Virus record (IMG/VR): IMGVR_UViG_3300002231_000753
Span: 1 to 64,000 of that record
Length of the DNA: 64,000 nt
Source: an uncultured virus (IMG/VR IMGVR_UViG_3300002231_000753)
Taxonomy: Duplodnaviria; Heunggongvirae; Uroviricota; Caudoviricetes; Schitoviridae
Strand: one strand, 5' to 3'
The notes beneath the pieces were generated by a model that had not been told where the DNA came from, searched no databases, and saw only the letters and a program-made list of their open reading frames with translations. The translations under genes and the position numbers were made by a program. This document shows positions 15,228 to 62,893 of the stretch, in pieces; position 1 is the first letter of the stretch; the number at the start of each line of letters is the position of its first letter.

Positions 15228-15269
15228 GATGCTAATATTACTAACAATTACAAGATTGAGACTATTTTG

Positions 15270-17478
15270 ATGAATGATGAAAATTCAAAAGTAGAATATG
15301 ATAAATCTGACATTGATCCTGAATCTCTCGATCCGCTTGTAGATTGGGAGAATGCTCCTACCGTCAAAGATTTGAAGCAGAATTACACGGATGCCAGTTC
15401 AGACAGATCGGTTAACATTAATAAAATCGATAGATGGTTGGATAATCTCAATCAAACTGGAACAGCTAAGATCAAAACTGCTGCTGGCAGGTCTTCTGCT
15501 GCACCTAAAGTAATTCGTAAACAGGCTGAATGGCGTTATGCATCGTTAAGTGAACCATTCTTAAGTACTGACGATATATTTAATACTGCTCCACATACTG
15601 CAGAAGATAAAGAAGCAGCAATACAGAATGGCTTAGTACTTAACTATCAATTCAATTCCCAAATCAATAAGACTAAATTTGTTGATGAATATGTTCGTAC
15701 TGCTGTCGATGAAGGTACTGTAGTAATACGTGTAGGCTGGGATTTCGAAGAGTCTGTTGAAAATATTGAGGAACCTCAATATACGTATATGCAGACCCAA
15801 TCCCCGGAAGCAATGCAAAAATTAGCTGAACTTAATCAGTTATTGATGACTGATCCAAGACAGTATATTGCGCAAATACCTGAACAAGACCAGGAAGCTC
15901 ACCGTCAATCAATGTTAAACGGTACCCCTGTTCAAGCTGTGTTTGATAAATACGAGACAGTAAGGAAGCAGGTAACTTTAAAGAATCAGCCAACTCTTCA
16001 GATAGTTAATTACAAAAGTAGTAACTATCGATCCAACATGTGAAGGTGAAATAGATAACGCTAACTTTGTTATCTATGAATTTGAAACATCCATGGCAGA
16101 GTTAGAAGCTGATGGGATTTATCATAACCTAGATCATATCAATGCAGCCAACAGTTCAATATTGGCTGCTGCTGATGACTCGACTAAAGAGGCGCCTTCA
16201 TTCAGTTTCAAAGATAAGCCTAGAAAGAAATTCATAGCATATGAATATTGGGGCTACTGGGATATTGATGGAGATGGCTCATTGACTCCTATCGTTGCCA
16301 CATATGTTGGTGATGTAATGATTCGTTTAGAAGAGAATCCTTTCCCAGATAAGAAACTTCCATTTGTAGTGGTTCATTACTTACCGGTACGTAAGTCCAT
16401 TTATGGTGAACCTGATGGTGAATTACTTGAAGAAAACCAGAAAGTAATTGGTGCAGTTACCCGAGGCATGATTGATATCTTAGGTAGGGGCGCCAATGGA
16501 CAAGTAGGTGTTCGTAAAGGTGCATTAGACGTAGTTAATAAGCGTAAATTTATTAAAGGCTTAGATTATGAGTATAATGGTGGCGATCCACGTCAGTCAT
16601 TTCATATGCACACTTTTGACGAGATACCAGAATCTGCTAAATTTATGCTTGGTATGCAAAACGCTGATGCAGAAAGTTTAACTGGCGTTAAAGCTTTCAG
16701 TCAGGGTAGCGGTATTACCGGTGATGCTTTGGGTGATACAGTCGGTGGGCAAAAGAATGCTCTTGATGCTACAGCTAAGCGTGAAATGGGAATCTTACGT
16801 AGATTAGCCAAAGGTGTTACTGATATCGGCCGTAAGATTATCAGTATGAATGCCGAGTTCTTAGATGAACGTATGGTTGTCCGAGTAACTAACGATACAT
16901 TCGTTCCAATACGCCGAGATGATCTAGCCGGTAACATCGATCTACGTTTAACTATCAGTACTGCAGAAGCTGACGCAGCAAAGGCTGAAGAATTATCCTT
17001 CATGCTACAAACAGTTGGACCGAATACAGATCCTAAGATGCTGTATTCAATAATGGCTGATATTGCTCGATTGCGTAAGATGCCTGAATTGGCAAAGAAG
17101 CTAGATGAATATGAACCACAACCCGATCCAATTGCTGAAGCTAAAGCACAATTGGAAGTTGAATTACTGAAAGAACAGATCATTACTGAACGTTCTAAAG
17201 CAATTGAAAACAGGGCCTCTGCAGCATTGGATTACGCTAAAGCTGGTACTGAGGGTGAGAAGTCTAGAAACTTGAGTAGCGATTCAGATCTTAAAGATTT
17301 GGATTTCGTTGAACAAGAATCCGGTACTCAGCAAGAACGTGAATTACAAAAGCAATCGCAACAAGCAGCAGCTAATGCTGAATTGAGTACTGTTAATCAC
17401 TTACTCAAGCAAAGAGAAACCCGTGATAAATCTAATGCAGATAACGTCACTACAACCAATGGGCGACAATCAGTTTAG
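15270..17478 (+). CDS. Portal protein (N4 gp59-like), frameshifted near 16015
   Basis: PKVIRKQAEWRYASLSEPFLS, YEYWGYWDIDGDG, EENPFPDKKLPF, AESLTGVKAF motifs. Confidence 0.9.
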
Positions 17479-35400: not shown

Positions 35401-36802
35401 AGTAGATGGTACAGGTAAAATTACCGCTTATCGTTATATGATGAGTCAGGCTACCCGTGATGCAGTGTTACAGCCTAATGAATCATTTGATGAAGTATTA
35501 GGCCATATGGAATCCAGTATTATTGATAAGCACAATTCTGAGTACGTGAATGCCCGAGTCATTAATGAAACATATGATGATTATTTGAACAATTACTCTA
35601 AAGATCCTACTTCATATATCGAGATCAGTGAGACTTCTTCAAATCACTTGTATCGAGAGATCTACCGCATGTTACCTGAATCAGCTAGACAGGAAATAAA
35701 GCGTGTATGGGGGAATAACGCTATGTACGTTAAGGCTGAATATGCTAAGACTATATTCGGTCAACGTAAATATTCCATTACTCAGTGGCAGAAGTCGAAT
35801 GAGCCCGATGCTCAAGGGTTACGTAAATTACGTAATATGACTAATGATGTTGTTCACGGGGTAGTTACTACCAATACTGCAAGACGTATTGAGTCACTGT
35901 GGCAGGAAACTACTGCAATGGTTAAAGATGCCATTGTAATTAAGTCTGGTACAGTACTGACGGGTAACCTTGCCTACAATACGATATTGCTTTGGGCTAA
36001 AGGTGTACCTGCTAAAGATGCAATAACCGGTCAAGCTAGGGCTATTTCATTAGGTAGGCAGTACCAGAAAGATTCAAGGGAATTGGATAGGTTAGTACGT
36101 GAGGTTACGATAATTCCATCAAAGCAAAATGATCCTGAGATCAGATCGAGAATACAGTTCTTAAAGAACGCTATTTACAAAAATCCTATACGGGAATTGA
36201 TGGAACTAGGGATACATCAAAGTATCGTTGAAGATGTAGATATGATTAATGATCAGTACTCAATCAAATCTAGATTTGAAGATGCCTTAGATAGAAATGC
36301 TATTACCCGGAATGTAATAGGTAATACTCCTGAGACAATAAAGAAAGGATTTAAGATAGCAACAATGCAGCATGATACTGCTGTCTATAAATTCTTACGT
36401 GATGCTACTCAAGTAAGCGACTTTGCTGCTAGATTCGTATTGCATGAAAATAATATGAAGAATGGTATGAGTAAAGCAGATTCTATTGATGATATCGTAG
36501 AATCGTTTGTTAACTATGAACTGCCTACACATCGGTATTTACAATACGGTAATGATATAGGTTTAGTAGTATTTACTAAATTCTTTATTAGAATCCAGAA
36601 AATAGTGTTTAATGCTGTCAGAGATAATCCAGGTAGATCTTTAGCCTCGTTAGGTTTTTCAGATCTATCTGGATTCCTTCCACCAGTGACTGAACCAAAT
36701 ATGCTTACAGGCAGTATAGCGAGTAGAGTTAATTTAGATCCTATCAGCTTTGCTTCTAAGATCTTATCAGCTCCAGCGATATCAGGTTCTATTATTGATT
36801 AG
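26430..36802 (+). CDS. Virion-encapsidated single-subunit RNA polymerase (N4 gp50, vRNAP), ~3,450 aa; frameshifts near 31535 and 31690
   Basis: Motif A SIEVDGITNG, motif B RSLSKDPSMVTSYGAG, motif C NVHDA. Essentially cysteine-free. The short 31465-31701 ORF bridges the two large ORFs. Confidence 0.92.
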
Positions 36803-48244: not shown

Positions 48245-48565
48245 TCAGTCGTCTTTGAATTTACCAATAATTGCGTTATCGACTTTTTCGAACACAGCTC
48301 CAGCCTCTTTGTTCATACCCAACATCATTTCTACGGTGCCTTTAAACTGTTGAGTAGTTATGCCCGCAACGCCTTCGAAATGGCTCGCTTTTTCCCTGGA
48401 TTCTTTTAATTCCTCAAGCAGTTCTTTGATCTTAACTTCTTGGTTTTTTACGGTGTTTATAGATACTTCACATACCCGTAGTGCTCTAATCAATCCTACT
48501 AGGGCTGCCCCTGTCACGAAAATCATGATCAAGGTTGAAGTTACATTTATTATGATAGGGTCCAT
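48245..48565 (-). CDS. Membrane-anchored coiled-coil hypothetical protein
   Basis: N-terminal hydrophobic helix; TAATG coupling to the PolA C-terminal fragment. Confidence 0.6.
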   Translation of the reverse strand: MDPIIINVTSTLIMIFVTGAALVGLIRALRVCEVSINTVKNQEVKIKELLEELKESREKASHFEGVAGITTQQFKGTVEMMLGMNKEAGAVFEKVDNAIIGKFKDD

Positions 48566-49569
48566 TATTTGTTTCCTTCTTTATATTCTTGTACTGCTGC
48601 CAGTATCTGTTGATTAGTGGCGTCATTAGGGATTTTTACAGTGTCTGCCCAAGTAGGGAATAACTCTAATCCTGCACCTAATTTAACCGTGCCGTGTTTT
48701 ATTTCATCAAGTTCCTGCCATTGCATACATCCGATCAAGTTCTTATTAATCCATTTAACTACATCCATTTTATCAGTGAAGATGAAATAGATAGCATCAT
48801 GGATCATACCTATTGGTTTGATGTCATGTGCATAAGGAGATTTAAGAACTCTATCTTGGAATTCAATAGCAGCTCGATTGTTTAACATTCCATATGATTG
48901 CCCTAAAGCATTACCTGCGGTTCTACTTTCTTTTTGGGCTTCATACGGTGTAGATTTCTTTCCTAGGATAGTTTGAGCTAACATAGGTGTACGTACTCGT
49001 AAACCAAATGCACCCTCTACATAGCCTGTCTTACTGGCTATCTCTAATTTCTTTGCGGTCCAGGCATCAGATTCTTTATATAACTCGTGATAGTTTTTCT
49101 CAATTCTCTTGGCTAACTCTTCAGTTAAACCAAGATTAGAAACTAATGTATGCCATGTACCAAGATACGTTAATGCAAAGGTAGGTACCTTAGAGTCTTG
49201 CCTAAGTAATGGGTATTTATCAGCTATCGAGTTAATGCTTTCTACTGAATTTGGATCAATATCAGGCATTTGATCTCCAAAGTAGGAGTATGCCCGGATA
49301 CAGTGACCACAGTATCCATCGGTATAGACTTTTAATTTATTTTTGTCTCGGGTAGTTAATGCAGAAATCATGTCTTCTAGAGAATTAAAATCAGCTCCAC
49401 CCATGATCCACCCAGCTTCTTGAACACATGCAGCATTAATTTGTTCATACAATTCATCAGAGCAATCGGGGTGCGCTTTAATATTAGTGAGCAATGGTCG
49501 TGTTTTTGTGTTGGATGGGTAAGAACCTAACGAATGTAACTCAGTTACCAGCTGTTTAAGGTCGGTCAT
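48565..49569 (-). CDS. polA: DNA polymerase (family A), fragment 3: palm/fingers
   Basis: Motif A ADFNSLE, motif B RQDSKVPTFALTY, motif C IHDA. Confidence 0.9.
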   Translation of the reverse strand: MTDLKQLVTELHSLGSYPSNTKTRPLLTNIKAHPDCSDELYEQINAACVQEAGWIMGGADFNSLEDMISALTTRDKNKLKVYTDGYCGHCIRAYSYFGDQMPDIDPNSVESINSIADKYPLLRQDSKVPTFALTYLGTWHTLVSNLGLTEELAKRIEKNYHELYKESDAWTAKKLEIASKTGYVEGAFGLRVRTPMLAQTILGKKSTPYEAQKESRTAGNALGQSYGMLNNRAAIEFQDRVLKSPYAHDIKPIGMIHDAIYFIFTDKMDVVKWINKNLIGCMQWQELDEIKHGTVKLGAGLELFPTWADTVKIPNDATNQQILAAVQEYKEGNK

Positions 49570-50233
49570 ATCGCAATGCCTTTAAGTGTTCTTGCATGTC
49601 ATTTTTTATCATAAAATCTACTCTAGCTTGATACCCTTCTTCAGCAGTATCGAATGTACCAAGATGTTTGCGTTTACCTTTTAAGGTAATACTAGCTTGC
49701 CACCTATTACTATTTTTTCTGAAGCTTACGCCTTTAAATCCCGATGTATTATTGCTAGGCATACCTCTATTAATTGCTTGTATGTCCATAGTTACCCATC
49801 TACAATTTTCGGGGCAGTAATTCCCATTATTGTCTTTACGATCTAATGATAATCCTTCTGTGTATCCTGTCTTTATTGCCCAAGTTTTGAATGCTTCATA
49901 GCTATCTTTCCATGCTGCACATACACTACGTCCTATAGCACCGTACTTAGGATATCCTGCATCGGTTGGAACATGGCATCGAGCTAACATGGCATGGTAC
50001 ATTTTATAAAGCTTTGTGCCGGTATCGCCATGTTTAGTACGATCAAGTGTTTCTTTACCCCGGCAACCGCAGCTTACTGTGTGACCTGTACGTAGATGCG
50101 ACATACTAACTATCGTTGATTTACCGCAGTCACAGTCACATAAGAATTTTTTCTTGTAATTAATATTTGAATGTAATGAAAGTACGGTTAATCGGCCATA
50201 CCTATCCCCTATAATACTTTGCCCATATTTCAT
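49556..50233 (-). CDS. Free-standing HNH-AP2 homing endonuclease
   Basis: GDRYGRLTV...CDCDCG...SCGC, SLDRKDNNGNYCPENCRW, and AP2 domain NTSGFKGVS...HLGTFDTAEE. Confidence 0.88.
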   Translation of the reverse strand: MKYGQSIIGDRYGRLTVLSLHSNINYKKKFLCDCDCGKSTIVSMSHLRTGHTVSCGCRGKETLDRTKHGDTGTKLYKMYHAMLARCHVPTDAGYPKYGAIGRSVCAAWKDSYEAFKTWAIKTGYTEGLSLDRKDNNGNYCPENCRWVTMDIQAINRGMPSNNTSGFKGVSFRKNSNRWQASITLKGKRKHLGTFDTAEEGYQARVDFMIKNDMQEHLKALRYDRP

Positions 50234-50252
50234 ATTGACCCCACTATAAAGT

Positions 50253-51089
50253 TTATTGGATGGAGTCAATTATAGAACTTAATTTTATTAAGTCAATTCG
50301 GGTATTACCTGAAGGTGCTTTAAAACATTTTTTAATTAGTTTTGCGTATGTACTGTTACTTGGTAGGTTCTGCAAGTTTGGGCCGCTGCTAGACAGCCGC
50401 CCACTTACAGTACCTCCCAAGTTAAAGTTTCCATGGAGATAGTAGACACCATCTTCTTTGAGAATGCTGTTCTCTTTGAATGCTTTAATGAAAGTATCAA
50501 GTATTTTACTTACTTCACCTAAGTCGATGAGAGCTTTAAGTAAATCAGCATCTTCTGAGCATTTAGCTACATGGATTAATTTCTTAAGAGTCTTACCGCC
50601 TACTGCTGGCTGTTTCTTCTTGGTTCTATCGATAATTTTATAACCAAGGAAATCATATAACAGTTGGCTTACTTGAGGATTGCTTGCTGGGTTGAATTCA
50701 AAATAATCGAAGTACTCGATAGGTTCTGTTTTCTTTTTCCATTTTGCATGCATTACATCAGATTCACGTTTACGTAGAACCTTAGTAAATTTCTTTATAA
50801 TAGGAGAATTGAATACAGTATGAGAAAACTTCTTACGATAGCCTTCCATAATAGTTTCAGTCTTAAGTACCTGATCCATATCTAAAGGCATACCGGTTAA
50901 CTCCATTTGGAGTATAACTTTAATGCTTGGGATCATTATCTGGTTGTAGATTTTTTCTTGATGGTCTGTAATGAGCTTAGGTTTGTTTTTGTTATGAACA
51001 TACCAAGTACTTAAACAATCTTTAAGATTGTATTCTAAGAGCTCATCTGTAGGAATATCAGCTGTAGTAACTTCTTCTTCTTTAGCCAT
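50253..51089 (-). CDS. polA: DNA polymerase (family A), fragment 2: ExoIII, thumb and start of palm
   Basis: ExoIII YNLKD, MELTGM, FNPASNPQ, TVSGRLSSSGPNLQN. Confidence 0.9.
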   Translation of the reverse strand: MAKEEEVTTADIPTDELLEYNLKDCLSTWYVHNKNKPKLITDHQEKIYNQIMIPSIKVILQMELTGMPLDMDQVLKTETIMEGYRKKFSHTVFNSPIIKKFTKVLRKRESDVMHAKWKKKTEPIEYFDYFEFNPASNPQVSQLLYDFLGYKIIDRTKKKQPAVGGKTLKKLIHVAKCSEDADLLKALIDLGEVSKILDTFIKAFKENSILKEDGVYYLHGNFNLGGTVSGRLSSSGPNLQNLPSNSTYAKLIKKCFKAPSGNTRIDLIKLSSIIDSIQ

Positions 51090-51595
51090 TATATATGTCT
51101 ACTGGTTTTAAGTTCCTGGACACTATCGGCAGGAATCCATGCACCAAATTTATCGAATATACTTTCTATAAATTCGTCTTCGCTTTTATCAAATTCCCTG
51201 AAGTAAGGTGATGCCATCCATCCTATACCAATCATATGATGTTCGTTGCACGTATGAAGTAATTCCACATGTTGCTTGGATGCAGCTGTATCAAGGTCAC
51301 TCTGTTTACAATGTACATTGGTATCCCCTATCTGCATGCGCATGTAGTGTTCACCATGCTGATCTACACAAAAGACAACTAACAAAACACTCCACTTATA
51401 TTCACGTTCTTTAATAGCACGCTCAATTTCTGGAGATACATTAATTATCTTACCGTTATTCATATCGATAAGATTAGCGAATGGTTTGTCATTAAGTACG
51501 TAGATTACTGCAGAATGCTTTAATACCTTTTGGATTAACTTATCCATGCGATCATTCGGATTGTACTGTTTACGTCTTTTCTTAGTCCTAGCCAT
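51089..51595 (-). CDS. Conserved phage hypothetical protein inserted within polA
   Basis: RKQYNP...KWSV...GWMASP...IFDKFGAW pattern; TAATG coupling to fragment 2. Confidence 0.65.
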   Translation of the reverse strand: MARTKKRRKQYNPNDRMDKLIQKVLKHSAVIYVLNDKPFANLIDMNNGKIINVSPEIERAIKEREYKWSVLLVVFCVDQHGEHYMRMQIGDTNVHCKQSDLDTAASKQHVELLHTCNEHHMIGIGWMASPYFREFDKSEDEFIESIFDKFGAWIPADSVQELKTSRHI

Positions 51596-51600
51596 AATAG

Positions 51601-51804
51601 TTATGTCTTTTTCTTTTTGCGACTTTCAATGAATTTTTTACGCATCTCGGGAGTAGTAATATCTTTGTCATCTCCAAAGACATCATTATCTATTTCTTTT
51701 ACTGCATTACCTTTAGCTAAAAATTCTTTTGTAGCTTTATCAATAGCATCACTATTAATATGTTCGTGTTTAATTTCTTTTTTATTATGGTAATGTTCGC
51801 CCAT
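51601..51804 (-). CDS. SutA-like RNA-polymerase-binding small protein
   Basis: DAIDKATKEFLAKGNAVKEI resembles the SutA core L..A..EFL.RGG.V.EI. Confidence 0.55.
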   Translation of the reverse strand: MGEHYHNKKEIKHEHINSDAIDKATKEFLAKGNAVKEIDNDVFGDDKDITTPEMRKKFIESRKKKKT

Positions 51805-52763
51805 TAAAAAACTCCGTAATTGCCCATGAACTCGTGGCTAGTTGATTTAAGATCTAATTCATTTCTAGCAGTACTGTTAGTAGCTAGATATGTAATGATT
51901 TTTGTATCTTCAATATTTTTAGTCATGACTTGAATACCTTCAATCATACCTGCTTGATCAAGTAAGGAATCCATCCATAACTCATGAACTATTACTTTAG
52001 TATCATAATTAGCATTCTGCCAAATAATCTTGCCTTCGTAAGCTTCAAAGAATTGTTTTAATAATCCTTTAATATTGTTGGCTACAGCTTCGGTATTATC
52101 TCTTTCTACGCAGAAAGCAACACCGTTATGTTGATCCCATGCAAAGCCAATAGTTACTATCCCAGCTTCATTGAATCTGAGGCTATTGGTTTCTATGTCA
52201 CAGGATAGAGCATCATATTTTAGTAACTCTAATAAAGTATTTTTTATATCGGTAACAGATTTAGGATACTTAAAAGAGTGAATAACATTCTCACCTAACT
52301 TAGTAACAACACCGTTAGCAAGATCTTTAAATATCTTGAGAGATAAATCCAATTTTTCTTGAATATCTGGGTTATAGAATAAAGCTTTATAATTGGCAGC
52401 TAAAACCATACGCATATGATTGTAGTCTTTATGCTTACAATCATATATCTCACCATGATGGTTTTTTACTTTAGATACTCCAGATAATTTTTTGAAATAT
52501 TCCCCATCACATACAAGTAAGTAATCAGTGTTAAGTGATCGCAATGCTTTAAGAAGTTTTTCTATGTAAGCATTAGCTTCTTTAGCAGGACATTTATCTT
52601 TATCGTTATAAAATAAACTGACTGCAATGCAGTCTTTATGATCTAAGCCTAATGGTTCGAGATAGTGTTTAAGTATCTCATGTTTTTTAAGTGCAGCTTC
52701 TTTTATTAAGATAGCTACCTTATATTCATTATCAGGATTCTTATTAAAAATTATGTGCTGCAT
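51804..52763 (-). CDS. polA: DNA polymerase (family A), fragment 1: N-terminal domain plus ExoI/ExoII
   Basis: N4-type N-terminus (LLVCDGEYFKKL), ExoI CDIET, ExoII QNANYD, DTKIITYLATNS; ends EFMGNYGVF. Confidence 0.88.
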   Translation of the reverse strand: MQHIIFNKNPDNEYKVAILIKEAALKKHEILKHYLEPLGLDHKDCIAVSLFYNDKDKCPAKEANAYIEKLLKALRSLNTDYLLVCDGEYFKKLSGVSKVKNHHGEIYDCKHKDYNHMRMVLAANYKALFYNPDIQEKLDLSLKIFKDLANGVVTKLGENVIHSFKYPKSVTDIKNTLLELLKYDALSCDIETNSLRFNEAGIVTIGFAWDQHNGVAFCVERDNTEAVANNIKGLLKQFFEAYEGKIIWQNANYDTKVIVHELWMDSLLDQAGMIEGIQVMTKNIEDTKIITYLATNSTARNELDLKSTSHEFMGNYGVF

Positions 52764-53704: not shown

Positions 53705-55006
53705 TTAACCTCCATATTTAGCCGGTAACTTGCCGTATAGGTAAACTGTGTTTTCTGCTCGGGTATACCCTACATAGAACATACGTGCAACGTCTGTTCT
53801 GTTATGACACTCAGCTACATCAGCCAAATTGATAAAAACATTATCGCAAGTAGTGCCTTGAGCTTTATGGATTGTTGATGTATACGAGGGACGTAAATCA
53901 GCAAAAGTATTTTGTAACTTATACTTGTATGCCCAATGCTTCATCCTATTAGCTTCTTTAATTTCATTCATTATATCGGCATGATTTTCAGCAGCGATAC
54001 AGTCAATAAAGTTATTGGTTCCTAGAATACGTAATCTAAGTAAATAGCAATCAATGCTTTCACGTATAGCTCTGGTTCTAGTGATTACTTCTACTTCTCT
54101 ACTACCTGGAAGTAATACATCCCCGCTATTATTTTTAATAGGTTGGTTAGTAATAAGTTTTTCGCCTATTGCATATACTTCAGTGAATCCTCTTAACTTA
54201 CGGATATAGTTATTATACTGAATAACCTTACTGTTCTGCCAAGCCAATACTTTACTGTATTTATGAGGTCTAGCGATTTTAAAAGTCTCATCCATTTTCT
54301 GTTGGAAATCGGGACCTGATAAATGTTGAATATACGGATAAACCAATAAATCTTTTAGTTTAGGAAATGGTTTGCCATCTATTACATTACGGTAAGCTTC
54401 ACCTGCTAATTCAATAGGGTGAGCTTGTTCTACACCATTAATAGTTACAGGCTTTTGACGACATACTTCAGTTAACTTGGCTCGGTAAGTACATTGCTCA
54501 TATGCAGGTACTTTATTGCCCTTGATAGGTACTGTTTGATAGTGATCCATTACATAAAGAATTTTGCTGTCTGGAGTAGACTTACGGATCATGTCCAATA
54601 AAACTTCATCAACAGTTGAAGCTTCATCAATAATAATTAGGGTGTTATGTAATGGCTTATATCTGCCTTTAATTTTACGTAAACTTGTCTTCACCGGTAC
54701 GTCTATCAAAATAAGGAATAATGCCTAATTTAGAATGAATAGTAGTAGTATCTTTACCGGTTTTATCGCATAGCTCAGATGCAGCTTGGTTAGTTGTAGC
54801 TGTGAGCTCTACATTTAAAATCACCATCTTTTGCAGATTAATTTAAGTACCTTACTGTACTTACCTGCTTCATCGATAAGGTGGTTAACTAAAGTAGATT
54901 TACCGGTACCACTCCATCCAGAGATAACCATTTCTTTTATATCTTTACTGATAATAAATTTAATGAACGCATCTGTAGCGTCCAATTGGCCTTGAGTTAA
55001 TTGCAT
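53705..55006 (-). CDS. SF1B Dda/RecD-like DNA helicase (N4 gp37-like), frameshifted near 54830 and 54710
   Basis: LTQGQ, GWSGTGKS, TATTNQAA (shifted frame), IIIDEAS, TIHKAQGTT, YVGYTRA. Confidence 0.88.
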
Positions 55007-55039
55007 AGATATTCCAAATAATGACAAATTCCCTTTTAG

Positions 55040-55239: not shown

Positions 55240-56424
55240 TTACTGCCTCGTTGAATAATCGATCTTGTCTCCGAAGAATACTTCAGCTTCCGGATTATCA
55301 ATGACTACCCACAATACTGGATACCCTGGATCATTCTGTATTGCAGTACAGTATAGATCACTGAACACAATGAGCACTTCAGGAGACTTATCTTTATAAT
55401 AATCAAATACTGGCTTTAAGTTGGTACCACCATATCCACTGAATGTAATATCATCTAATCCTTCGTCCTTGCTCAAATTATATACATTTTTGATACTAGT
55501 GTCGAAATCGATGATGGTTAATTGACTCGGGCTCATAGATTGTTTGATATCAGTTACTTCTGACATGAAGCACTTGAAGTCATGATCGCTTACGGAACCA
55601 CTGGTGTCGATTGCTACGCATATCTCACCTAGCCCTTCACTATGTAACCCCGGTAAGTAAAAGTCCGGCATGAAGCGTTTATTGGGCTTACTGAAGGAAT
55701 AGTCATCCTTAGCAAATGCAGTCATATAATTCTGCAATAATACATTCCATGGAAGTTTTGGATTAAATAGATTGTCCAATAGACGCTGTGCATCACCCGG
55801 TACGGTACCAGGAGCATCACCTTGCATCTGGGATTCCATAGAAGCTTTGGCCACTGTCTGGGCTATTTTAGCTTCCTGTTCCTGTATCTGCTCTTGATCA
55901 CCTTTTAATGGCATGATGTCTTTATCATAACCACTGCCATCATTAGGGCTTGTACCTAATCCACTGCTAGGTGGACTGTTAGGTGGAGGATTCTGGTGCA
56001 GAATGGTATAGACTTCTTCAGTCGATTTACCGCGGTATTGGGGATCACAAGCACCACCACTAGGAATAGTAATGTTGGCATCTTTTAAGAGATTATTAAT
56101 TACATGATCTGCTGCTTCATTAAAAATCTCAGGATCTCTAATACCAGTTCGACACATATGTTGTAAAGCTACGTGCATTACTTCATGACAAATTAATCCA
56201 ACTCTTTCATCTGGACTTAGTTGTAAAAACCAGTCCGGGTTAATAACCATATCGATACCATTAGTACCGGCAGAAGGAATAGAATCATCCCATGCATACT
56301 TAAGCGAGAATGCTATGGATATATAAAAGGCAGTGTTAGACATCTGCATCAAATTAATTTTGGCTTTACTTAAAGCTTTATTGGCTTTTGTATAATCTCT
56401 TTGTACTACGGGTGCTTCTGACAT
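55240..56424 (-). CDS. vWA domain/metallopeptidase protein (N4 gp25-like, DUF2201)
   Basis: HEVMH zincin motif, N.AAD..IN, MIDAS DTSGS, GYGGT, VFSD. Confidence 0.9.
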   Translation of the reverse strand: MSEAPVVQRDYTKANKALSKAKINLMQMSNTAFYISIAFSLKYAWDDSIPSAGTNGIDMVINPDWFLQLSPDERVGLICHEVMHVALQHMCRTGIRDPEIFNEAADHVINNLLKDANITIPSGGACDPQYRGKSTEEVYTILHQNPPPNSPPSSGLGTSPNDGSGYDKDIMPLKGDQEQIQEQEAKIAQTVAKASMESQMQGDAPGTVPGDAQRLLDNLFNPKLPWNVLLQNYMTAFAKDDYSFSKPNKRFMPDFYLPGLHSEGLGEICVAIDTSGSVSDHDFKCFMSEVTDIKQSMSPSQLTIIDFDTSIKNVYNLSKDEGLDDITFSGYGGTNLKPVFDYYKDKSPEVLIVFSDLYCTAIQNDPGYPVLWVVIDNPEAEVFFGDKIDYSTRQ

Positions 56425-56702
56425 AATTCTTTTTCCTTTTGTAAAATTTCAGATAGTTGTTTTAATGTGTTTTCGTATGTATTAGTTCCGTTAGAAGGTA
56501 TAATGACTCCATCACATATATCGCGAGTATCATCAAAAATAATAAATTGACTTTGTTTTTTGTGATTATAGTGTCCTGAAAATACATACGCCCTTATGAC
56601 AAGGGAATTGTCGATATTAGTGTATCGATAAATATGAGGTTTGTGGGGCATTAAAGTAAAACCCATCAACGATAAATTAGTTATATATTCTTCTCTATTC
56701 AT
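56406..56702 (-). CDS. Array paralog (MNREEYITNLSLMGF)
   Basis: Shared N-terminal motif; overlaps the vWA start. Confidence 0.75.
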   Translation of the reverse strand: MNREEYITNLSLMGFTLMPHKPHIYRYTNIDNSLVIRAYVFSGHYNHKKQSQFIIFDDTRDICDGVIIPSNGTNTYENTLKQLSEILQKEKELCQKHP

Positions 56703-57001
56703 TATGGATTCAACCTAATTAAATTATCGATAGTCTCTATGGCATCTTTATAAGTTGTCCATACGTTATGTGAGTATGCTCTAATACGCGTTCGAGTATC
56801 TATATCAGGATTTTCTAAAGATACTGATACAGGGCATTGATCCTGAAATTTATCTTCGGTTTCTACGTAGATAATTATTTTCTTATTAGTTTTAAGTTTG
56901 ATTATGTATTTTTCCACACTACCAAATACTGCTGAATCATTTGTAGATACTTTAGTTGCACTGAGGATAGTTATGTTAAGTAAAAATTTATCTTTGTTCA
57001 T
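56702..57001 (-). CDS. Array paralog (MNKDKFLLNITILSA)
   Basis: Shared N-terminal motif; YKDAIETIDNLI. Confidence 0.75.
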   Translation of the reverse strand: MNKDKFLLNITILSATKVSTNDSAVFGSVEKYIIKLKTNKKIIIYVETEDKFQDQCPVSVSLENPDIDTRTRIRAYSHNVWTTYKDAIETIDNLIRLNP

Positions 57002-57294
57002 GACAACTCTTTTAAATATTTATCTATAGCTTCCATAGATTCAGCATAATTTACCCATATTTTATGAGTTAAACTTGAGTATGATTCACTATATATCCCT
57101 ATTCTTACTGGCTTTTTATCGAAAGGATCTTCTTCAACGATTTCAACATAAATATCTTTTCCATTAGGTACAGGTATTACATAGGACATATTACATATAT
57201 GATTAAGCCTTATAGCCTGATTATGGCTATATTCGCAGGTAGCATTCTTAGCACCAAGAATAATTATATTAGCTATAAAAGTATCTCTATCCAT
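56998..57294 (-). CDS. Array paralog (MDRDTFIANIIILGA)
   Basis: Shared N-terminal motif; YAESMEAIDKYL. Confidence 0.75.
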   Translation of the reverse strand: MDRDTFIANIIILGAKNATCEYSHNQAIRLNHICNMSYVIPVPNGKDIYVEIVEEDPFDKKPVRIGIYSESYSSLTHKIWVNYAESMEAIDKYLKELS

Positions 57295-57586
57295 TTTTAG
57301 TTAACTCTTTAGCAACAGCATCTAATATTTTTTCATAAGAAGGGAATTCATTAGGATTATCTGCGACTATATCTGTACTCCACGTATCAGGATACTGAAC
57401 AGTTACTTTTCTTTTAGGGGGCGTAATATTATCTAAGTATACTGTGTGTTTGATAATTAAATTGGTTGATCCCCTAGACCAAAATAATTCTAAAACATTA
57501 GTTTTGTCATAGGCTTTAAATGATTGTTCACCTAAATATTTATATCCTAGTATCAGTAAATTGGTTTTGAATGTTTTGAAGTTCAT
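57287..57586 (-). CDS. Array paralog (MNFKTFKTNLLILGY)
   Basis: Shared N-terminal motif. Confidence 0.75.
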   Translation of the reverse strand: MNFKTFKTNLLILGYKYLGEQSFKAYDKTNVLELFWSRGSTNLIIKHTVYLDNITPPKRKVTVQYPDTWSTDIVADNPNEFPSYEKILDAVAKELTKNG

Positions 57587-57876
57587 CGTCTATAAATCTC
57601 AATATGCCTTTAAAAGAAGTACCTAAAATTCCAAACTTTTCTCTGGGGTACACCATAACTGAAGGCCCATTAGGATCATCACTCATTAAGCAACTAATGT
57701 TGTATGTAATTCCAGGCATACTCTTATCAGTAATATGGAATTCTAAATTGAATTCAAAGTTTTGTTTACGCCAGACAAAATATTTAAATTTATCTACCAG
57801 ATTACCGTCTGTCGCATCTTCTACTAATTTGAAATCCATTAATAACATATTAGTTTTGAATTCGTTGTAAGGTCAT
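57540..57876 (-). CDS. Array paralog (MTYNEFKTNMLLMDF after removing one T)
   Basis: ATG at 57876; a single-base correction restores the motif. Confidence 0.65.
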
Positions 57877-57950
57877 GCTGTCTCCCCNCAATATATCTAT
57901 CCACTCTTTTAAGTACTTCATCGTAGTTAGGACATTTGTACGTAGTTGCT

Positions 57951-58260
57951 TCATAAGTCATCTTCTTTGGCATCGGGAATCTCATTTAATAAGTAATGGA
58001 AATGTTCCATTACTTTTTTAGTAGAAGTTGCTTTATAGGTAGTAAAATTTCTACTACTTATTTTATCAATTGTGGTTGAATGAAGTATAATTTCCGTAAA
58101 TGGCCAAAAAGAATAATTAAACATGCTGACAATAATAATATAGCTAAACCCATCTACTTTTTTCGTATACTTATAAGTGTGCTGACGTGTAGATTCCTCT
58201 TCTACCTCTAAACCTAAAATAAATAACTCAAACTTAATTCTTTTAAAGCGTAGTTCTTTT
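57951..58260 (-). CDS. Degenerate array paralog (RFKRIKFELFILGL); start uncertain
   Basis: Partial motif and similar length. Confidence 0.5.
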
Positions 58261-58506
58261 CTCTTGAGTAAGTTTGTTAATTTCTTCCATAATGCCTTTA
58301 TAAGAGTCAAACCATTTTCCTCCAATAGTTCCGCCTAAACAGTATCCACCATACTCACTTACATAAGTTCGAAAGGTTAAATCAGATCTACCGCTGTTAT
58401 CACGCCATTCTGTATATTCAGCAAGATGGGGTATATCTGCATCTTCTTTATTTACTGGAAGTATATTTAATAGAAATAGATTGGCTTTAAATTCATTGAA
58501 CGTCAT
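58243..58506 (-). CDS. Array paralog (MTFNEFKANLFLLNI)
   Basis: Shared N-terminal motif; YKGIMEEINKL. Confidence 0.75.
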   Translation of the reverse strand: MTFNEFKANLFLLNILPVNKEDADIPHLAEYTEWRDNSGRSDLTFRTYVSEYGGYCLGGTIGGKWFDSYKGIMEEINKLTQEKRTTL

Positions 58507-58804
58507 ATTTAATATAACCTGTTAAGTGTTCTAGCATGTGGGAATAAGAATGAGTTTTTGTTAATATTTTACCTGTAGATCTTACGACTAAAGTCATAGA
58601 ACCATCAGGTAAAAAACGAATCTGAAGAGAGTATCCTTCATTTACAAATACCGTATAAGAACTGACATCTAAGTTGGAATGATTTAGTTCATACAGTAAT
58701 GTTGCATTATCCTGATATAAATACTGTAAATATTCCTTAGGGCCAGTCTCTTTTATACGGAAGCCTAGGATAATTAGATTGGCTTTAAATTGTTTTCTGT
58801 TCAT
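58493..58804 (-). CDS. Array paralog (MNRKQFKANLIILGF)
   Basis: Shared N-terminal motif. Confidence 0.75.
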   Translation of the reverse strand: MNRKQFKANLIILGFRIKETGPKEYLQYLYQDNATLLYELNHSNLDVSSYTVFVNEGYSLQIRFLPDGSMTLVVRSTGKILTKTHSYSHMLEHLTGYIKYDVQ

Positions 58805-59051
58805 GTTTAATTAACTCATCTATCCATTCAAGAGCATCTTCATGAAAAATCATGCATCTACTTGTAGGCGTATTTTTTACAGATATAGGTTGTACAGTTA
58901 CATCTGCAGTACCGTTCCTATATATATCTATAGTTATTATGATGGATTCATGCAGTTCATTACGTATATACCTTTGACCATTTTTATAATGTGAAAGAGC
59001 TTTAGTAAATTTTAATAATACTAAATTACTTATAAATTCTTTACGCGTCAT
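58785..59051 (-). CDS. Array paralog (MTRKEFISNLVLLKF)
   Basis: Shared N-terminal motif; ALEWIDELIK. Confidence 0.75.
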   Translation of the reverse strand: MTRKEFISNLVLLKFTKALSHYKNGQRYIRNELHESIIITIDIYRNGTADVTVQPISVKNTPTSRCMIFHEDALEWIDELIKHEQKTI

Positions 59052-59289
59052 TGTATGCCTTTATGATTTCATCTATTTTATTGACAGCTTTCTGGAAAGT
59101 AGGCATTTCGTTACGAATTACTCTGATATAGCCATTTTCCCTTATACGTATATCAATGCCTTCAGTTAAAACTCGTACATAGATGCTATAGTGCGATGTA
59201 TCTAAGTCATACCAAGTCCTATCTGAATAGGCTTTATTTAATTTAAAGCCAAGGATCATTAAATTGGATATGAACTGCTCTTTATTCAT
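59041..59289 (-). CDS. Array paralog (MNKEQFISNLMILGF)
   Basis: Shared N-terminal motif; FQKAVNKIDEIIK. Confidence 0.75.
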   Translation of the reverse strand: MNKEQFISNLMILGFKLNKAYSDRTWYDLDTSHYSIYVRVLTEGIDIRIRENGYIRVIRNEMPTFQKAVNKIDEIIKAYNDA

Positions 59290-59518
59290 CTTTAATAAGC
59301 TTATCGATTATTCTTAGTCCAGCCATATAAGGTAAGCTAGTGTATCCATCATATTCTTCGTAAAATCCTGGAACATATTTAACTACATTAATTAAAGGAG
59401 TTTGTCTGAATACAGTTACTTCAATAGAATATCTAGGAAAATCTAAATCATATTTAGTTGAAGTACGTTGCTTAAATCCCATTATCATTAGGTTAGATAT
59501 AAACGCTTTTTTATTCAT
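59282..59518 (-). CDS. Array paralog (MNKKAFISNLMIMGF)
   Basis: Shared N-terminal motif; YMAGLRIIDKLIK. Confidence 0.75.
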   Translation of the reverse strand: MNKKAFISNLMIMGFKQRTSTKYDLDFPRYSIEVTVFRQTPLINVVKYVPGFYEEYDGYTSLPYMAGLRIIDKLIKDE

Positions 59519-59762
59519 TTTGTTGGGTCAACGTATCAAGTATTTTTAAGGCTTCTTCGTAGGTATTAGTAGGATAGCGAATTGAATCGCGGTGATAGAA
59601 TCCGCTTTTATGGGGATAAACATCTATATCTACGCTATCGAAATCTTTCCATATAGCTACAGTTATTTTTACAGATTTAAAATCTCGTTTATAGTTATTA
59701 CCATAATGCTGTTTTAATTTATGGATTAGGGTCAAATTAACTATGAATTCTTTTCGGGTCAT
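59511..59762 (-). CDS. Array paralog (MTRKEFIVNLTLIHK)
   Basis: Shared N-terminal motif; YEEALKILDTL. Confidence 0.75.
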   Translation of the reverse strand: MTRKEFIVNLTLIHKLKQHYGNNYKRDFKSVKITVAIWKDFDSVDIDVYPHKSGFYHRDSIRYPTNTYEEALKILDTLTQQNE

Positions 59763-60015
59763 GTTTATCCATAAAACTATCTATGTCACGTAGGATTTGT
59801 TTGTATTCTTTATGTATGTATTTTTTGTTATTTGAGCCCAGAATATCGTAATAATCTACACGTATTAATTTACCAAAAAAGATTACATCAATGGCATGCT
59901 CTTTACTTAGATCTGTTTCATAAATAGGGTTAACTGAATCACTTTGAGAGTGATCTAGTTTAAATTCATTAAATCCTAAAATGATAAGATTACTTATGAA
60001 CTCTTTCTTGGTCAT
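59737..60015 (-). CDS. Array paralog (MTKKEFISNLIILGF)
   Basis: Shared N-terminal motif; YKQILRDIDSF. Confidence 0.75.
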   Translation of the reverse strand: MTKKEFISNLIILGFNEFKLDHSQSDSVNPIYETDLSKEHAIDVIFFGKLIRVDYYDILGSNNKKYIHKEYKQILRDIDSFMDKHDPKRIHS

Positions 60016-60025
60016 ATTCTTTAAT

Positions 60026-60262
60026 CTATCTATCAATATATTTCAGACCTTTCTCATATGAGATAGTATTTATATCATGCAAAAGAATTCCTGAATCTAA
60101 CTCATATGAATACAGATTATAAATATGTTGTGGTTTTTCATCTGAGCATACACTTATAGATATTTGTGAATTTACTGTTTTATCGTACCATTTAGTTGTT
60201 AAATCAGCTGCCGGTTTAAATCCTAATATCAGTATATTAGTAATAAATTCTTCATAGGTCAT
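60026..60262 (-). CDS. Array paralog (MTYEEFITNILILGF)
   Basis: Shared N-terminal motif; YEKGLKYIDR. Confidence 0.75.
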   Translation of the reverse strand: MTYEEFITNILILGFKPAADLTTKWYDKTVNSQISISVCSDEKPQHIYNLYSYELDSGILLHDINTISYEKGLKYIDR

Positions 60263-60529
60263 AAGATTTAATCACCTTATCGATGTGCTCTATAGCACTT
60301 TGAAATGAGATATTACGCCTATTATCTTTTCCCCTATTTATGGAACCTCCTGTTATATTATTATTAAAAACGACTACGTCTTACTTTGTTTTCTGATATA
60401 TGTACTTCTATGTTTAAACCACGTTCAGGTAAACTTAGATCATACCAAGTATGGACTACGTCACTAGACTTAATATCTTTAATAGATCCTAATATAGTTA
60501 AATTAGCTATAAATATTTTTTCATTTCAT
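60252..60529 (-). CDS. Array paralog hidden by two single-A insertions (MNEKIFIANLTILGS...FQSAIEHIDKVIK)
   Basis: Manual translation with two single-base corrections restores both motifs. Confidence 0.6.
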
Positions 60530-60562
60530 AAAAATAAGGGAGTACCATTAAAGTACTCCCTT
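60530..60562 (-). terminator. Terminator-like hairpin between the AAA ATPase and the array
   Basis: AAGGGAGTAC-7nt-GTACTCCCTT followed by ATTTTT on the - strand. Confidence 0.65.
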
Positions 60563-60582
60563 TCCTTTATTAACAAAGTTCT

Positions 60583-61626
60583 TCAGTGTTTTCTGTTACC
60601 CCACTTTTGAATTTCACTGCGTTCACGTAATTCAATTCTACGGCGCATCATGTCTTGCATCGTTAATACCTGGAATTCTTTAGGCATACGATTCAATACA
60701 TCCATCAATGAACCTAGAGTTTTATCATTTACATTAGCTGCAATGATTCCAGATAATGCAAAGTTTACTGAGGGCTCATTCTCATCATATTTAAAGCCTT
60801 TAGGATCATTCAGAATATCTTCAATCTTAGGTAACTTATCGAAGATCTTACAGAACGTCATAAACTCATTTGCAACACCGGTACCAAGGGTACCAACCAA
60901 AACAGGACGTTTACTGTTTGGAATGGTAGGCCAGTCTTTAATGATACGAGAAGCAAACTCAAGCGTACGTGGGCATGAGAATGTTTTGTCATCCATATTC
61001 GAATTAAAGCTGTGAAGTGAATCAGGCTTATAAGCGATATACGAAGTAAGTCGAGTATCGATGTCATTATCTGCTGCCCAAATTAACCACTCTTTATGGC
61101 TTACTTCTAATTCAAAGTGAACCATACGTGAAGCCATAGCTGTCGATAGTTTATTTACAATGGCTTTATCAGTAATCAAGTTACCTGCTGCCATCATAGC
61201 TACATCTTTGTGCAAATCGAATTGTCCTACTTGTCGATCCAATACTAATTTATATGCACTGGCTTGAACCATTAGAGGAGCTGAATTAATTTCATCTAAT
61301 AGTAGGAGCCATCCGCTATAAGAAGTACCATCATCCTTTTTAGGGAATGGGGTATTTTCAGTAGGGAATGTATCCATAGGCACATAACTAGCGATATTAT
61401 TTTCTCTATCAATAGAAGGAAATCCAGATAGATCAGTCGGGTCACATTGACTTAATCGTAAATCAATTACTTTTAAATTATGTGCTTTAGCTAAATCTTT
61501 AGCTATAGATGATTTACCGATACCCGGACTTGAGTGCATCATTGGCACTAAGCCAGCTCTAAGTACATCCTTCAATAGCTCAGGAGCTTGTGAAGTAGTA
61601 ATAGTGGTTTTCATTGTTGCTTTCAT
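60583..61626 (-). CDS. MoxR-like AAA+ ATPase (N4 gp24-like)
   Basis: Walker A SSPGIGKS, DLRLSQ.DPTDL.GFP, Walker B LLLLDEIN, AAGN, SRMVH, CPR. The true C-terminus probably runs to ~60570 after a frameshift. Confidence 0.9.
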   Translation of the reverse strand: MKATMKTTITTSQAPELLKDVLRAGLVPMMHSSPGIGKSSIAKDLAKAHNLKVIDLRLSQCDPTDLSGFPSIDRENNIASYVPMDTFPTENTPFPKKDDGTSYSGWLLLLDEINSAPLMVQASAYKLVLDRQVGQFDLHKDVAMMAAGNLITDKAIVNKLSTAMASRMVHFELEVSHKEWLIWAADNDIDTRLTSYIAYKPDSLHSFNSNMDDKTFSCPRTLEFASRIIKDWPTIPNSKRPVLVGTLGTGVANEFMTFCKIFDKLPKIEDILNDPKGFKYDENEPSVNFALSGIIAANVNDKTLGSLMDVLNRMPKEFQVLTMQDMMRRRIELRERSEIQKWGNRKH

Positions 61627-61645
61627 TAAAATATTTCCTTTTGGT

Positions 61646-61900
61646 TTATTGTTTAAGTTGTTTAAGTTTATTTTCTATTTGATCTAAAATTTCTTTATAG
61701 GAATGAGTATCAAAGAATACATATCCACCATCCCATCTACCTCCTATAAGATATACCCTAATTTTTCCATCAATACCTCGATTTTTCCTTATATGGATAG
61801 CTACATCTTCAATAGGACCTATTCTACTGATGTTTTTTACAGGTTTATGTAGTTTTAATCCCAGGATTAATAAATTCATTTTGAATTCTTTTTCAGTCAT
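61646..61900 (-). CDS. Array-family paralog upstream of the ATPase (MTEKEFKMNLLILGL)
   Basis: GGAGAG RBS; shared motif; YKEILDQIENKL. Confidence 0.72.
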   Translation of the reverse strand: MTEKEFKMNLLILGLKLHKPVKNISRIGPIEDVAIHIRKNRGIDGKIRVYLIGGRWDGGYVFFDTHSYKEILDQIENKLKQLKQ

Positions 61901-61944: not shown

Positions 61945-62526
61945 TTACCATCCAGTTAAAACGAGATAATTCTTATCCCAATCAAAAATTTTATATAGAT
62001 ACATGTAATTCATTAAACCAACTTCTTTAGTCCAAGCACCTGTTATCTCATATTCAGATGTTTCTTTAAGATAGACGCCATTTTCCCATTCACTTGTTTT
62101 ACGTTTTAAATAGTTTCTAGCAGTAACTAATGCTGCTTTATTTAATTCGGTTGTATATTTATCGTAATTAACGATTTGTTCTATGCATCTCTCCAAATCT
62201 TTAGAGATTTTTGTGATATAAGCTTGTTGTTGCCATATTTCTTCATGAATTAATTTACTGAATTGTTCTTTAGTAAATATTTTAAATTCATGTTCATCAA
62301 TATTTACAGGATAAAAGTTTTCGAGCTTATTTATTACTTTTTCCTGTATAGCACCATCAATCACAATTTCAAATATTCGTTCAAATTGAGGTGGCTGATA
62401 AGGTGTGTAATCATCATTTGGATGTAACAGGGTAATGCTACATGTTATTTCTTCTTCGGATGTAAACTTTGTATAAATACTTTTTTCATATTTAGGTATG
62501 CTGCCTAGATAATTACGGTATCCCAT
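61945..62526 (-). CDS. Hypothetical protein
   Basis: AGGAGA RBS before MGYRNYLG; C-terminal FDWDKNYLVLTGW. Confidence 0.6.
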   Translation of the reverse strand: MGYRNYLGSIPKYEKSIYTKFTSEEEITCSITLLHPNDDYTPYQPPQFERIFEIVIDGAIQEKVINKLENFYPVNIDEHEFKIFTKEQFSKLIHEEIWQQQAYITKISKDLERCIEQIVNYDKYTTELNKAALVTARNYLKRKTSEWENGVYLKETSEYEITGAWTKEVGLMNYMYLYKIFDWDKNYLVLTGW

Positions 62527-62704
62527 CTTCTTTTCTCCTAGAAATGAGTTTAATGGTTTCATTATTTCTATGTTTTATATGACAGCTGCTATGGCTAGTA
62601 AATAATTTAGTGTAATCACTAGGCTTGCCTCCAAATTTCTCGGCTCTTTCTTTAGCACTAGGTATCAAAATTATTTCTTTACCGCAGTATGTGCATTTAG
62701 CCAT
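62513..62704 (-). CDS. Small zinc-binding hypothetical protein
   Basis: CTYC...H..C; GGGGAG RBS. Confidence 0.6.
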   Translation of the reverse strand: MAKCTYCGKEIILIPSAKERAEKFGGKPSDYTKLFTSHSSCHIKHRNNETIKLISRRKEDGIP

Positions 62705-62715
62705 ATACTCTCCCC

Positions 62716-62749
62716 TAAAATAAATAAGCCTCCAATTAAGGAGGCTTAT
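62716..62749 (-). terminator. Rho-independent terminator
   Basis: ATAAGCCTCC-AATTAA-GGAGGCTTAT with a T-rich tail on the - strand. Confidence 0.75.
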
Positions 62750-62893
62750 CAACTGATTATATCTCTATAGTATTTCTGTTTTAGTGCAGCATAGGATACA
62801 TGGCCCAGAACCATGCCCTGGTTATACTGCTATATATGGGAGTGCTGCTCTCCCGGTGAATCATTAAAAGTATGGATAAGATCATTTCAATTC

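Follow-up and report, generated by a model that had tools for sequence, protein, structure and literature searches.

Introduction

Tandem families of small accessory proteins are an already known kind of arrangement. Strings of EsaG/TipC immunity genes, which lie beside polymorphic toxins, consist of tandem, non-identical small paralogues with conserved 5′ and 3′ blocks and variable middles (PMC9484751), and T4 evolving in the laboratory underwent segmental amplification of tifA, the gene for a ToxN inhibitor (PMC9391042). The internal proteins of T4 are diverse small proteins, packaged in the head, that share a short N-terminal segment acting as a cleaved propeptide (PMC9026906). Kaur et al. 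(2020; PMC7159879) linked conflict systems built on von Willebrand factor A (vWA) and MoxR components both to small proteins that diverge fast and are cleaved by a zincin peptidase and to small domains in tandem copies, and Iyer et al. (2021; PMC7824862) proposed that a phage pair of MoxR ATPase and metallopeptidase-vWA protein takes part in virion assembly with peptidolytic processing. Here we analyse bases 1–64000 (the window) of the 76,093-bp uncultured virus record IMGVR_UViG_3300002231_000753, in which an array of small paralogous genes lies within the locus of an N4 gp24/gp25-type pair (PHROG 1297 and PHROG 1314; DUF2201_N and DUF2201), encoding a MoxR-like ATPase and a zincin-like metallopeptidase with a vWA domain. 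As in relatives, both genes are present, the ATPase gene is upstream, and the Walker, HExxH and metal ion-dependent adhesion site (MIDAS) motifs are intact, but here 15 copies part the two genes by 4.2 kb, as against less than 2 kb in 66 of 73 relatives. We tentatively favour the view that the array is an old, selected, lineage-specific tandem expansion of small protein-binding modules for phage–host conflict.

The locus resembles each of the known systems in part. It shares with the EsaG/TipC strings the tandem, non-identical small paralogues with conserved ends and variable middles, but is without sequence homology to them, lacks their likeness at the DNA level and belongs to a lytic phage; nor did its flanks (the ATPase, the zincin-vWA protein, an unmatched 205-aa open reading frame (ORF) and helicase pieces) give any toxin-family match. 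With tifA the likeness lies in tandem copies of a small inhibitor gene gained under host-defence pressure; those copies stem from segmental amplification, whereas the ones described here are only ~22% identical, old and diversified, and do not amount to a dosage increase. The vWA–MoxR ternary systems likewise bring together a MoxR ATPase, a vWA domain, a zincin and small diversifying or tandem proteins in one neighbourhood, but they are cellular, their small proteins are unrelated, and neither their VMAP component nor their effector domains were seen here. In the literature searched, which did not extend to bioRxiv supplements, we found no description of a paralogue array inside a gp24/gp25-type pair of N4-like phages. 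The small proteins thus constitute a new family, one expanded to an extent unusual for a 76-kb phage.

Results and Discussion

Sixteen small paralogues occupy the ATPase/zincin-vWA locus

A family profile built from 15 copies was run on the whole record and found 16 members, all on the minus strand between 56406 and 61900. Fifteen places gave E-values from 2.8e-23 to 8.9e-15 and the sixteenth, an N-terminal piece at 60382–60525, gave 1.3e-4. All 16 matches fall in this locus and the best unrelated ORF in a six-frame scan of the window had an E-value of 0.37, so the family stands far beyond chance. These E-values, together with two AlphaFold models described below, bear out the proposal of an earlier note, written from the letters of the window and a list of its ORFs, that the copies are paralogues of a single family and fold alike. 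The gene order on the minus strand is: the 205-aa ORF, copy c1, the ATPase gene, a terminator-like hairpin, 15 copies and the zincin-vWA gene (Table 1). The 4,158-nt interval from the ATPase stop (60583) to the vWA start (56424) is filled by the 15 copies (14 open and one broken), which agrees with the earlier count of about 15 genes between the two and one more just upstream of the ATPase; all five N-terminal strings quoted with that count are present, in c2, c3, c6, c8 and c12. The array totals ~4.4 kb, or 5.8% of the genome, a large investment for a size-limited podophage capsid.

The copies encode proteins of 78–108 aa. That they are consecutive and overlapping was correct for most neighbours, which overlap by 1–47 nt, but not for c2–c3 and c10–c11, which are separated by short gaps, and three of the frames proved defective: 13 of the 16 copies are intact, c10 lacks a canonical start, although its frame is open upstream as far as a TTG at 58325, and c11 and c16 are frame-broken. 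The two pieces of c16 (N-part, 24.3 bits; C-helix piece, 10.4 bits) lie in different frames, with the ATG out of frame by one base, and there is an ambiguous base, N, at 57888 near the c11 start. These defects may be assembly errors, because the helicase, portal and virion RNA polymerase genes are also split, an N is present and read depth is ~3 in the likely source run; contigs of two runs (X1 and X2) leave the frame-break sites uncovered.

A further account, in which unequal recombination left the array behind as a decaying or neutral by-product and most copies have no specific function, would draw on the two frame-broken copies, on the one without a canonical start and on the base composition, since the G+C minimum of the window coincides with the array (0.30–0.32 over 56001–60000, compared to 0.32–0.43 elsewhere). 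We judge this account very unlikely: 13 clean ORFs with a common hydrophobic core pattern at 22% identity require long purifying selection, and the frame breaks may, as noted, be artefacts of assembly.

The hairpin and its T-run directly follow the ATPase stop, so that a promoter would not fit in ahead of the first array copy. A second strong terminator-like hairpin (62723–62750, minus strand; 11 pairs and a T-run) lies ~2.2 kb upstream of it, and the two would bracket one unit composed of a 79-aa ORF, the 205-aa ORF, c1 and the ATPase gene; neither Pfam nor PHROG gave a match for the 205-aa ORF (61945–62562), which directly precedes c1. Most array genes (56400–60300) have no Shine–Dalgarno-like purine run upstream, and the 20 nt before their ATGs are A/T-rich, often with ATTAAA. 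Translational coupling could account for such starts, as could a host in which initiation does not depend on Shine–Dalgarno pairing.

Conserved ends are predicted to form the helices of one compact domain

Pairwise identity among the copies averages 22% (range 9–43%), and adjacent copies (23.8%) are no closer than distant ones. Across 17 sequences conservation is concentrated on the N-terminal side, at F6 (88%), N9 (94%), L10 (76%), L13 (76%), G14 (71%) and Y27 (94%), and on the C-terminal side, at Y65 (71%), L69 (65%), I72 (65%) and D73 (53%). Positions F6, L10, I12, L13, F15, Y27, I36, I38, V40, I49, Y65, L69 and I72 are hydrophobic in 88–100% of the sequences, while the alternate strand positions 35, 39 and 48 are variable and hydrophobic in 0–6%; N9 is the sole near-invariant polar residue, and the isoelectric points of the copies range from 4.9 to 9.7.

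AlphaFold2 modelled c6 as a single domain (predicted local distance difference test score (pLDDT) 90.5; predicted template modelling score (pTM) 0.79) with a helix at residues 3–12, five antiparallel strands and a second helix at residues 65–81. In the c13 model (pLDDT 79.4) the elements follow one another in the same way, with an added insert of low confidence, and single-sequence models in the ESM Atlas gave pTM values of 0.71 (c6) and 0.69 (c13). The copies thus have in common, by prediction, one alpha-beta5-alpha two-layer domain. Because conserved hydrophobic positions in the strands alternate with polar variable ones, the sheet would have one helix-packed and one solvent face; in the models the conserved N- and C-terminal motifs are the fold's two helices, packed on one sheet face as a scaffold, and the variable part is the exposed surface and loops, which have diverged in sequence, length and charge. 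The earlier description of strongly diverged, beta-strand-like middles between preserved ends therefore fits both models. In the suggested comparison of folds, the c6 and c13 models agree with each other. Foldseek found no match in PDB or BFVD at E ≤ 1e-3. ESM Atlas feature scores, which are leads only, peaked at 0.86 (c6) and 0.85 (c13), with no named family above 0.80. Two-layer alpha/beta folds like the predicted one are common, and small binders often use them, but no family could be named. A HicA/dsRBD-like toxin was considered on account of the N-terminal motif and rejected: none of 15 members gave a Pfam HicA row at E ≤ 10, and there are five strands in place of alpha-beta3-alpha.

The N-terminus had been taken for a shared tag that docks onto a common partner or, alternatively, for a sorting signal of the T4 kind. 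In both models it is no free peptide but helix 1 of the compact domain, with hydrophobic residues at its conserved positions. The copies might still be virion-packaged, ejected internal proteins carrying a T4-like capsid-targeting signal, perhaps processed by the zincin-vWA protein in place of a prohead protease. The short N-terminal likeness to the T4 signal speaks for this, as do the findings in T4 that targeting needs no more than the first 10 residues and that the internal proteins, once mature, are diverse, a trait interpreted as the mark of an arms race (PMC9026906), and the proposed role of the phage MoxR and metallopeptidase-vWA pair in virion assembly (PMC7824862). But the T4 segment is a cleaved propeptide of head-packaged proteins, whereas the segment here is predicted as an integral helix with core-type residues (pLDDT 94 over residues 1–10 of c6) that leaves no removable propeptide; the genes are non-structural, being part of the replication-gene block, whereas the head genes are on the other strand; and none of the 39 window ORFs scanned gave a prohead protease match, a set that does not include small ORFs or the last 12 kb of the genome. 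We regard packaging as most improbable.

Selection at the protein level maintains the conserved ends

Where two copies carry the same residue they use identical codons at a frequency of 0.50 in the N-terminal block and 0.52 in the C-terminal block, compared to 0.52 and 0.55, respectively, expected from the array's own codon usage, and the best 50-nt block, or 5′-end direct repeat (family D1), is 60–74% identical in DNA to the reference copy. With no excess of codon or DNA identity, neither gene conversion nor blocks of recombination were retained as an explanation for the conserved ends of this array. Given the lack of excess similarity in DNA and the mean identity of 22%, it is selection on the protein that keeps the ends, and the duplications are old.

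Relatives of the family are rare

The copies had no sequence match in Pfam, PHROG, NCBIfam or PDB, and tblastn with two members found none in 50,697 phage records. The search for synteny that had been suggested also came back empty: the family profile had no match in any of 80 related IMG/VR loci around vWA homologues of 33–51% identity (best E 0.28) or in four isolate-phage loci, and neither the ATPase nor P0015 (see below) as query found relatives among viral contigs. One apparent match of P0016 in metagenome contigs (locus L011) was spurious, being antisense inside a 322-aa gene with a profile E-value of 3.7.

An exhaustive profile search of 1.84 billion representatives returned 18 hits at E ≤ 1e-3, 13 of them the window's own proteins. 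Two are real outside members: P0015 (78 aa, from a 1,247-bp Logan contig) and P0016 (83 aa, from a 2,301-bp JGI contig). Three others (P0014, P0017 and P0018; 888–1160 aa) were set aside as repeat proteins that match the C-helix motif only, in 6–13 repeats of at most 7 bits each. A further member, P0019 (83 aa; 27.8 bits across the full-length profile), turned up in a word-based search and derives once more from a 2,301-bp JGI contig. So does P0022, a vWA orthologue of 52% identity that was identified in the vWA search. Since P0016, P0019 and P0022 have the same source and the same contig size, and all are neighbours of this locus, they very probably lie on one and the same contig, in which case a second phage has at least two copies beside its vWA gene. 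The array of the window is itself embedded in the ATPase/vWA locus, as had been observed. P0016 and P0019 are identical over their first 20 residues, unrelated in their middles and loosely similar at their C-termini; in this they resemble the EsaG/TipC strings, and the pattern hints at cassette-like exchange or very recent 5′ conversion, unlike the array here.

The ATPase/zincin-vWA pair and its interval in other phages

Both proteins of the pair are of the N4 gp24/gp25 type. The ATPase matches PHROG 1297 over residues 4–344 and carries Walker A (GIGKS) and Walker B (LLLLDE) motifs; it matches Pfam AAA_3 and AAA_5 only below their cut-offs, and its relatives are annotated as MoxR-like ATPases. 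The vWA protein matches DUF2201_N (E 5.6e-40), DUF2201 (E 2.5e-28) and PHROG 1314 (E 1.8e-129), with its HEVMH (HExxH) and DTSGS (MIDAS, DxSxS) motifs intact, and residues H80, E81, H84, D273, S275 and S277 are invariant or nearly so in 43 homologues.

Both genes occur in 73 of the 80 IMG/VR loci, with the ATPase gene upstream in every case. The gp24 and gp25 genes had been called normally adjacent, which holds only in part: the gap is below 500 bp in 28 of the 73 loci, 0.5–2 kb in 38 and 2–8 kb in seven. In PJN101, pYD6-A, pVa5 and 1.097.O it measures 4.5–6.5 kb and contains genes unrelated to the array (for a cold-shock protein, HNH and GIY-YIG nucleases, an SPFH protein and single-copy small genes). 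As gap size and gene content differ among relatives, the ATPase–vWA interval is a variable accessory region, and as all 73 loci have the pair without this small-protein family, the pair does not need it.

Some relatives have small paralogues of other kinds near the pair. Among the long IMG/VR relatives the closest is L014, whose vWA protein is 51% identical; here six Cys-rich paralogues in tandem (6061–8299; 64–101 aa), with C-x-x-C motifs and L-x-x-L-L-like ends, finish 22 nt before the ATPase gene, and the ATPase–vWA gap is filled by a gene for a 218-aa protein. L033 has two small paralogues between the ATPase and vWA genes, L076 and L078 have five 2.6 kb upstream, and in PJN101, 1.097.O and pYD6-A another tandem family (73–102 aa, with a K/R-M-x-x-L-L end) lies upstream of the ATPase gene; this last family was rejected as a relative of the array (hhalign probability 0.2%). 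An iterative profile search found at least three co-directional small paralogues of any family in 8 of 85 loci, two of which look like dispersed endonuclease-size ORFs and one of which is a DNA repeat. Directly upstream of the vWA homologue in L080 (1848–2550) a DNA tandem repeat gives spurious N-E-S-rich 'ORFs' that are not a gene family. Many unrelated small proteins of marine N4-like relatives end in Leu-Leu-acidic/Gly just before the next start, an ending that may be imposed by the ribosome-binding site of the following gene, which overlaps it, and may not be a protein motif.

These loci bear on whether the array works with the pair. The copies could form an exchangeable third component of a MoxR/vWA-zincin machine, as clients or adaptors that dock by their conserved helices onto its vWA (MIDAS) domain, there to be remodelled by the ATPase or cut by the zincin domain, or they could bring bound host proteins to the machine. 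Copies flank the ATPase gene on both sides and the last one overlaps the vWA start; P0016, P0019 and the vWA orthologue P0022 very probably share a contig; the hydrophobic arc of helix 1 exceeds what a surface helix requires; in L014 and L033 the pair is adjoined by arrays of small paralogues from unrelated families; and, according to PMC7159879, vWA–MoxR systems come with small fast-diverging proteins cut by a zincin. Set against this, the pair lacks the family in all 73 loci holding both genes, tandem paralogues of any kind are as scarce as the 8 of 85 count indicates (endonuclease-size ORFs and repeat included), a terminator-like hairpin lies between the ATPase gene and the array, and the pair borders a block of small early/middle genes in N4-like genomes, which makes neighbourhood alone weak evidence. 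The modular system that the earlier note had inferred is supported in part, by the shared fold, the diverged middles and the place of the array in the locus; the absence of the family from the 73 loci, the hairpin separating ATPase from array and the unrelated accessory genes occupying the interval in relatives do not support it. Prediction of a complex between c6 (paralogue alignment) and the vWA protein (43-row alignment), run without controls, scored 0.00, which favours neither side. We consider docking onto the machine less likely than the reading we favour, but the strongest of its rivals. Were the copies to work with the pair, they would give a first handle on two N4-like core genes without an assigned role, and a vague 'chaperone' annotation would give way to a testable client–adaptor model.

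A wider version of this idea would make the N4-type MoxR and zincin-vWA pair the constant core of a widespread three-part machine, the third part being lineage-specific tandem 'handle-bearing' small proteins, unrelated between lineages, that serve as exchangeable clients or adaptors, with this phage having the largest all-alpha/beta version. The gp24/gp25 core genes would then be a programmable hub for remodelling and proteolysis in phage–host conflict; we think this version improbable.

A panel of small binders as the favoured reading

We return to the array as a tandem expansion of binding modules. One orphan gene would have been duplicated in tandem to give small (78–108 aa), soluble, single-domain proteins, with the copies kept by selection on the protein and not by gene conversion. 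The array would be transcribed with the middle/replication genes, probably via read-through of the terminator after the ATPase gene, and its last copy, c15, would be translationally coupled to the zincin-vWA gene. Each copy would bind a different protein target, among host defence or takeover targets or their variants, and repeated duplication and divergence in a phage–host arms race would have produced a hard-wired panel of binders; the array may lie between the two genes of the pair simply because that interval is a hotspot for accessory genes. Read-through expression and target-specific binding by each copy are steps that we infer. The clear membership of all copies in one family, the predicted common fold with its conserved core, the age of the duplicates and the selection on their proteins are in line with this reading. 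So is the accessory character of the family (no library matches, none of 80 loci, a variable interval), as is the presence of small immunity, inhibitor and chaperone proteins among weak fold neighbours (Z 5–7.9). In the wide structural search behind this last point the top match was the Med17 C-terminal domain (Z 7.9, root-mean-square deviation (rmsd) 3.0, 81 aligned residues), followed by the size-matched 87-residue TriTu immunity protein (Z 7.4, rmsd 2.8, 74 aligned), a further parallel to the EsaG/TipC strings, and, at Z 5–6.5, by type III secretion system chaperones, the CdiI immunity protein, PsiB, frataxin and AcrIIA11.

Several considerations weigh on the other side. Z-scores below 8 are in the range typical for models without real relatives; the input to AlphaFold was the paralogue alignment itself, so that the 'shared fold' is partly built in; and the binder role is drawn from size, fold, pattern of divergence and genomic setting. 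Helix 1 is unusually hydrophobic (positions 6, 7, 10, 11, 12 and 13), and the excess could be a shared docking or dimer surface, such as docking onto the machine would require. The likely co-occurrence with a vWA gene on the 2,301-bp contig and the copies on both sides of the ATPase gene speak against a chance position. Should each copy prove to be a specific binder, the array would amount to a natural library of small scaffolded inhibitors and to a record of the hosts or defences met by the lineage.

Genome and setting

Portal, major head protein and large terminase genes were assigned to the plus strand by PHROG matches, and primase, single-stranded DNA-binding protein, DNA polymerase pieces and a Dda-like helicase to the minus strand; the virion RNA polymerase was likewise matched. 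The best relatives of the ATPase and vWA proteins (42–49% identity) are in marine Schitoviridae, among them Vibrio phages PJN101 and VBP47 and Pseudoalteromonas phage pYD6-A. On the strength of these matches and relatives we assign the record to an uncultured N4-like (Schitoviridae-type) phage. Megablast of the region against the phage collection gave no match, and hence no close DNA relative.

Table 1. Positions of the array copies, the flanking pair and related features; coordinates refer to the window except where another locus is named.
Feature	Position	Strand	Basis
Copy c1, 84 aa, 19 nt upstream of ATPase	61646..61900	-	Family profile E 9.3e-23
MoxR-like AAA+ ATPase (N4 gp24 type), 347 aa	60583..61626	-	PHROG 1297 E 8.4e-117
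Terminator-like hairpin, 11 pairs + T-run, between ATPase stop and first array copy	60536..60562	-	
Copy c16, full-length, frame-broken twice (after codon 2; mid-gene)	60252..60529	-	N-part E 1.3e-4
Copy c2, 78 aa	60026..60262	-	ORF + family profile
Copy c3, 92 aa counted from motif ATG	59737..60015	-	ORF + family profile
Copy c4, 83 aa	59511..59762	-	ORF + family profile
Copy c5, 78 aa	59282..59518	-	ORF + family profile
Copy c6, 82 aa, top family-profile match, modelled	59041..59289	-	Family profile E 2.8e-23
Copy c7, 88 aa	58785..59051	-	ORF + family profile
Copy c8, 103 aa	58493..58804	-	ORF + family profile
Copy c9, 87 aa	58243..58506	-	ORF + family profile
Copy c10, ~99 aa, without ATG/GTG/TTG at motif	57951..58250	-	E 8.9e-15
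Copy c11, 1-nt frame break just after ATG at 57876	57540..57876	-	E 6.9e-15
Copy c12, 99 aa	57287..57586	-	ORF + family profile
Copy c13, 98 aa, modelled	56998..57294	-	Family profile
Copy c14, 99 aa	56702..57001	-	ORF + family profile
Copy c15, 98 aa, overlaps vWA start by 19 nt	56406..56702	-	ORF + family profile
Zincin-like metallopeptidase + vWA protein (N4 gp25 type), 394 aa	55240..56424	-	Pfam DUF2201_N/DUF2201; PHROG 1314
K/R-M-x-x-L-L family in relatives	L009 800-2210; L013 10166-10944 and 4754-5017; L010 2528-2836		
Leu-Leu-acidic/Gly ends in relatives	L012 1964-3058; L013 1990-3086; many small genes of L009, L010, L014, L076		

Several core genes of the window are in pieces. The Dda-like helicase is split into three ORFs (53705–55027) and the portal gene into two (15267–17478), and the virion RNA polymerase occupies two ORFs of ~1700 aa each (1707 and 1711 aa; 26430–36802). 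At least three pieces make up the DNA polymerase (48565–52763), with an HNH endonuclease ORF (49556–50269) between them. Some of these core-gene splits may be real, as homing endonuclease insertions or a split virion RNA polymerase, while frameshift errors in an assembly of low depth may explain others.

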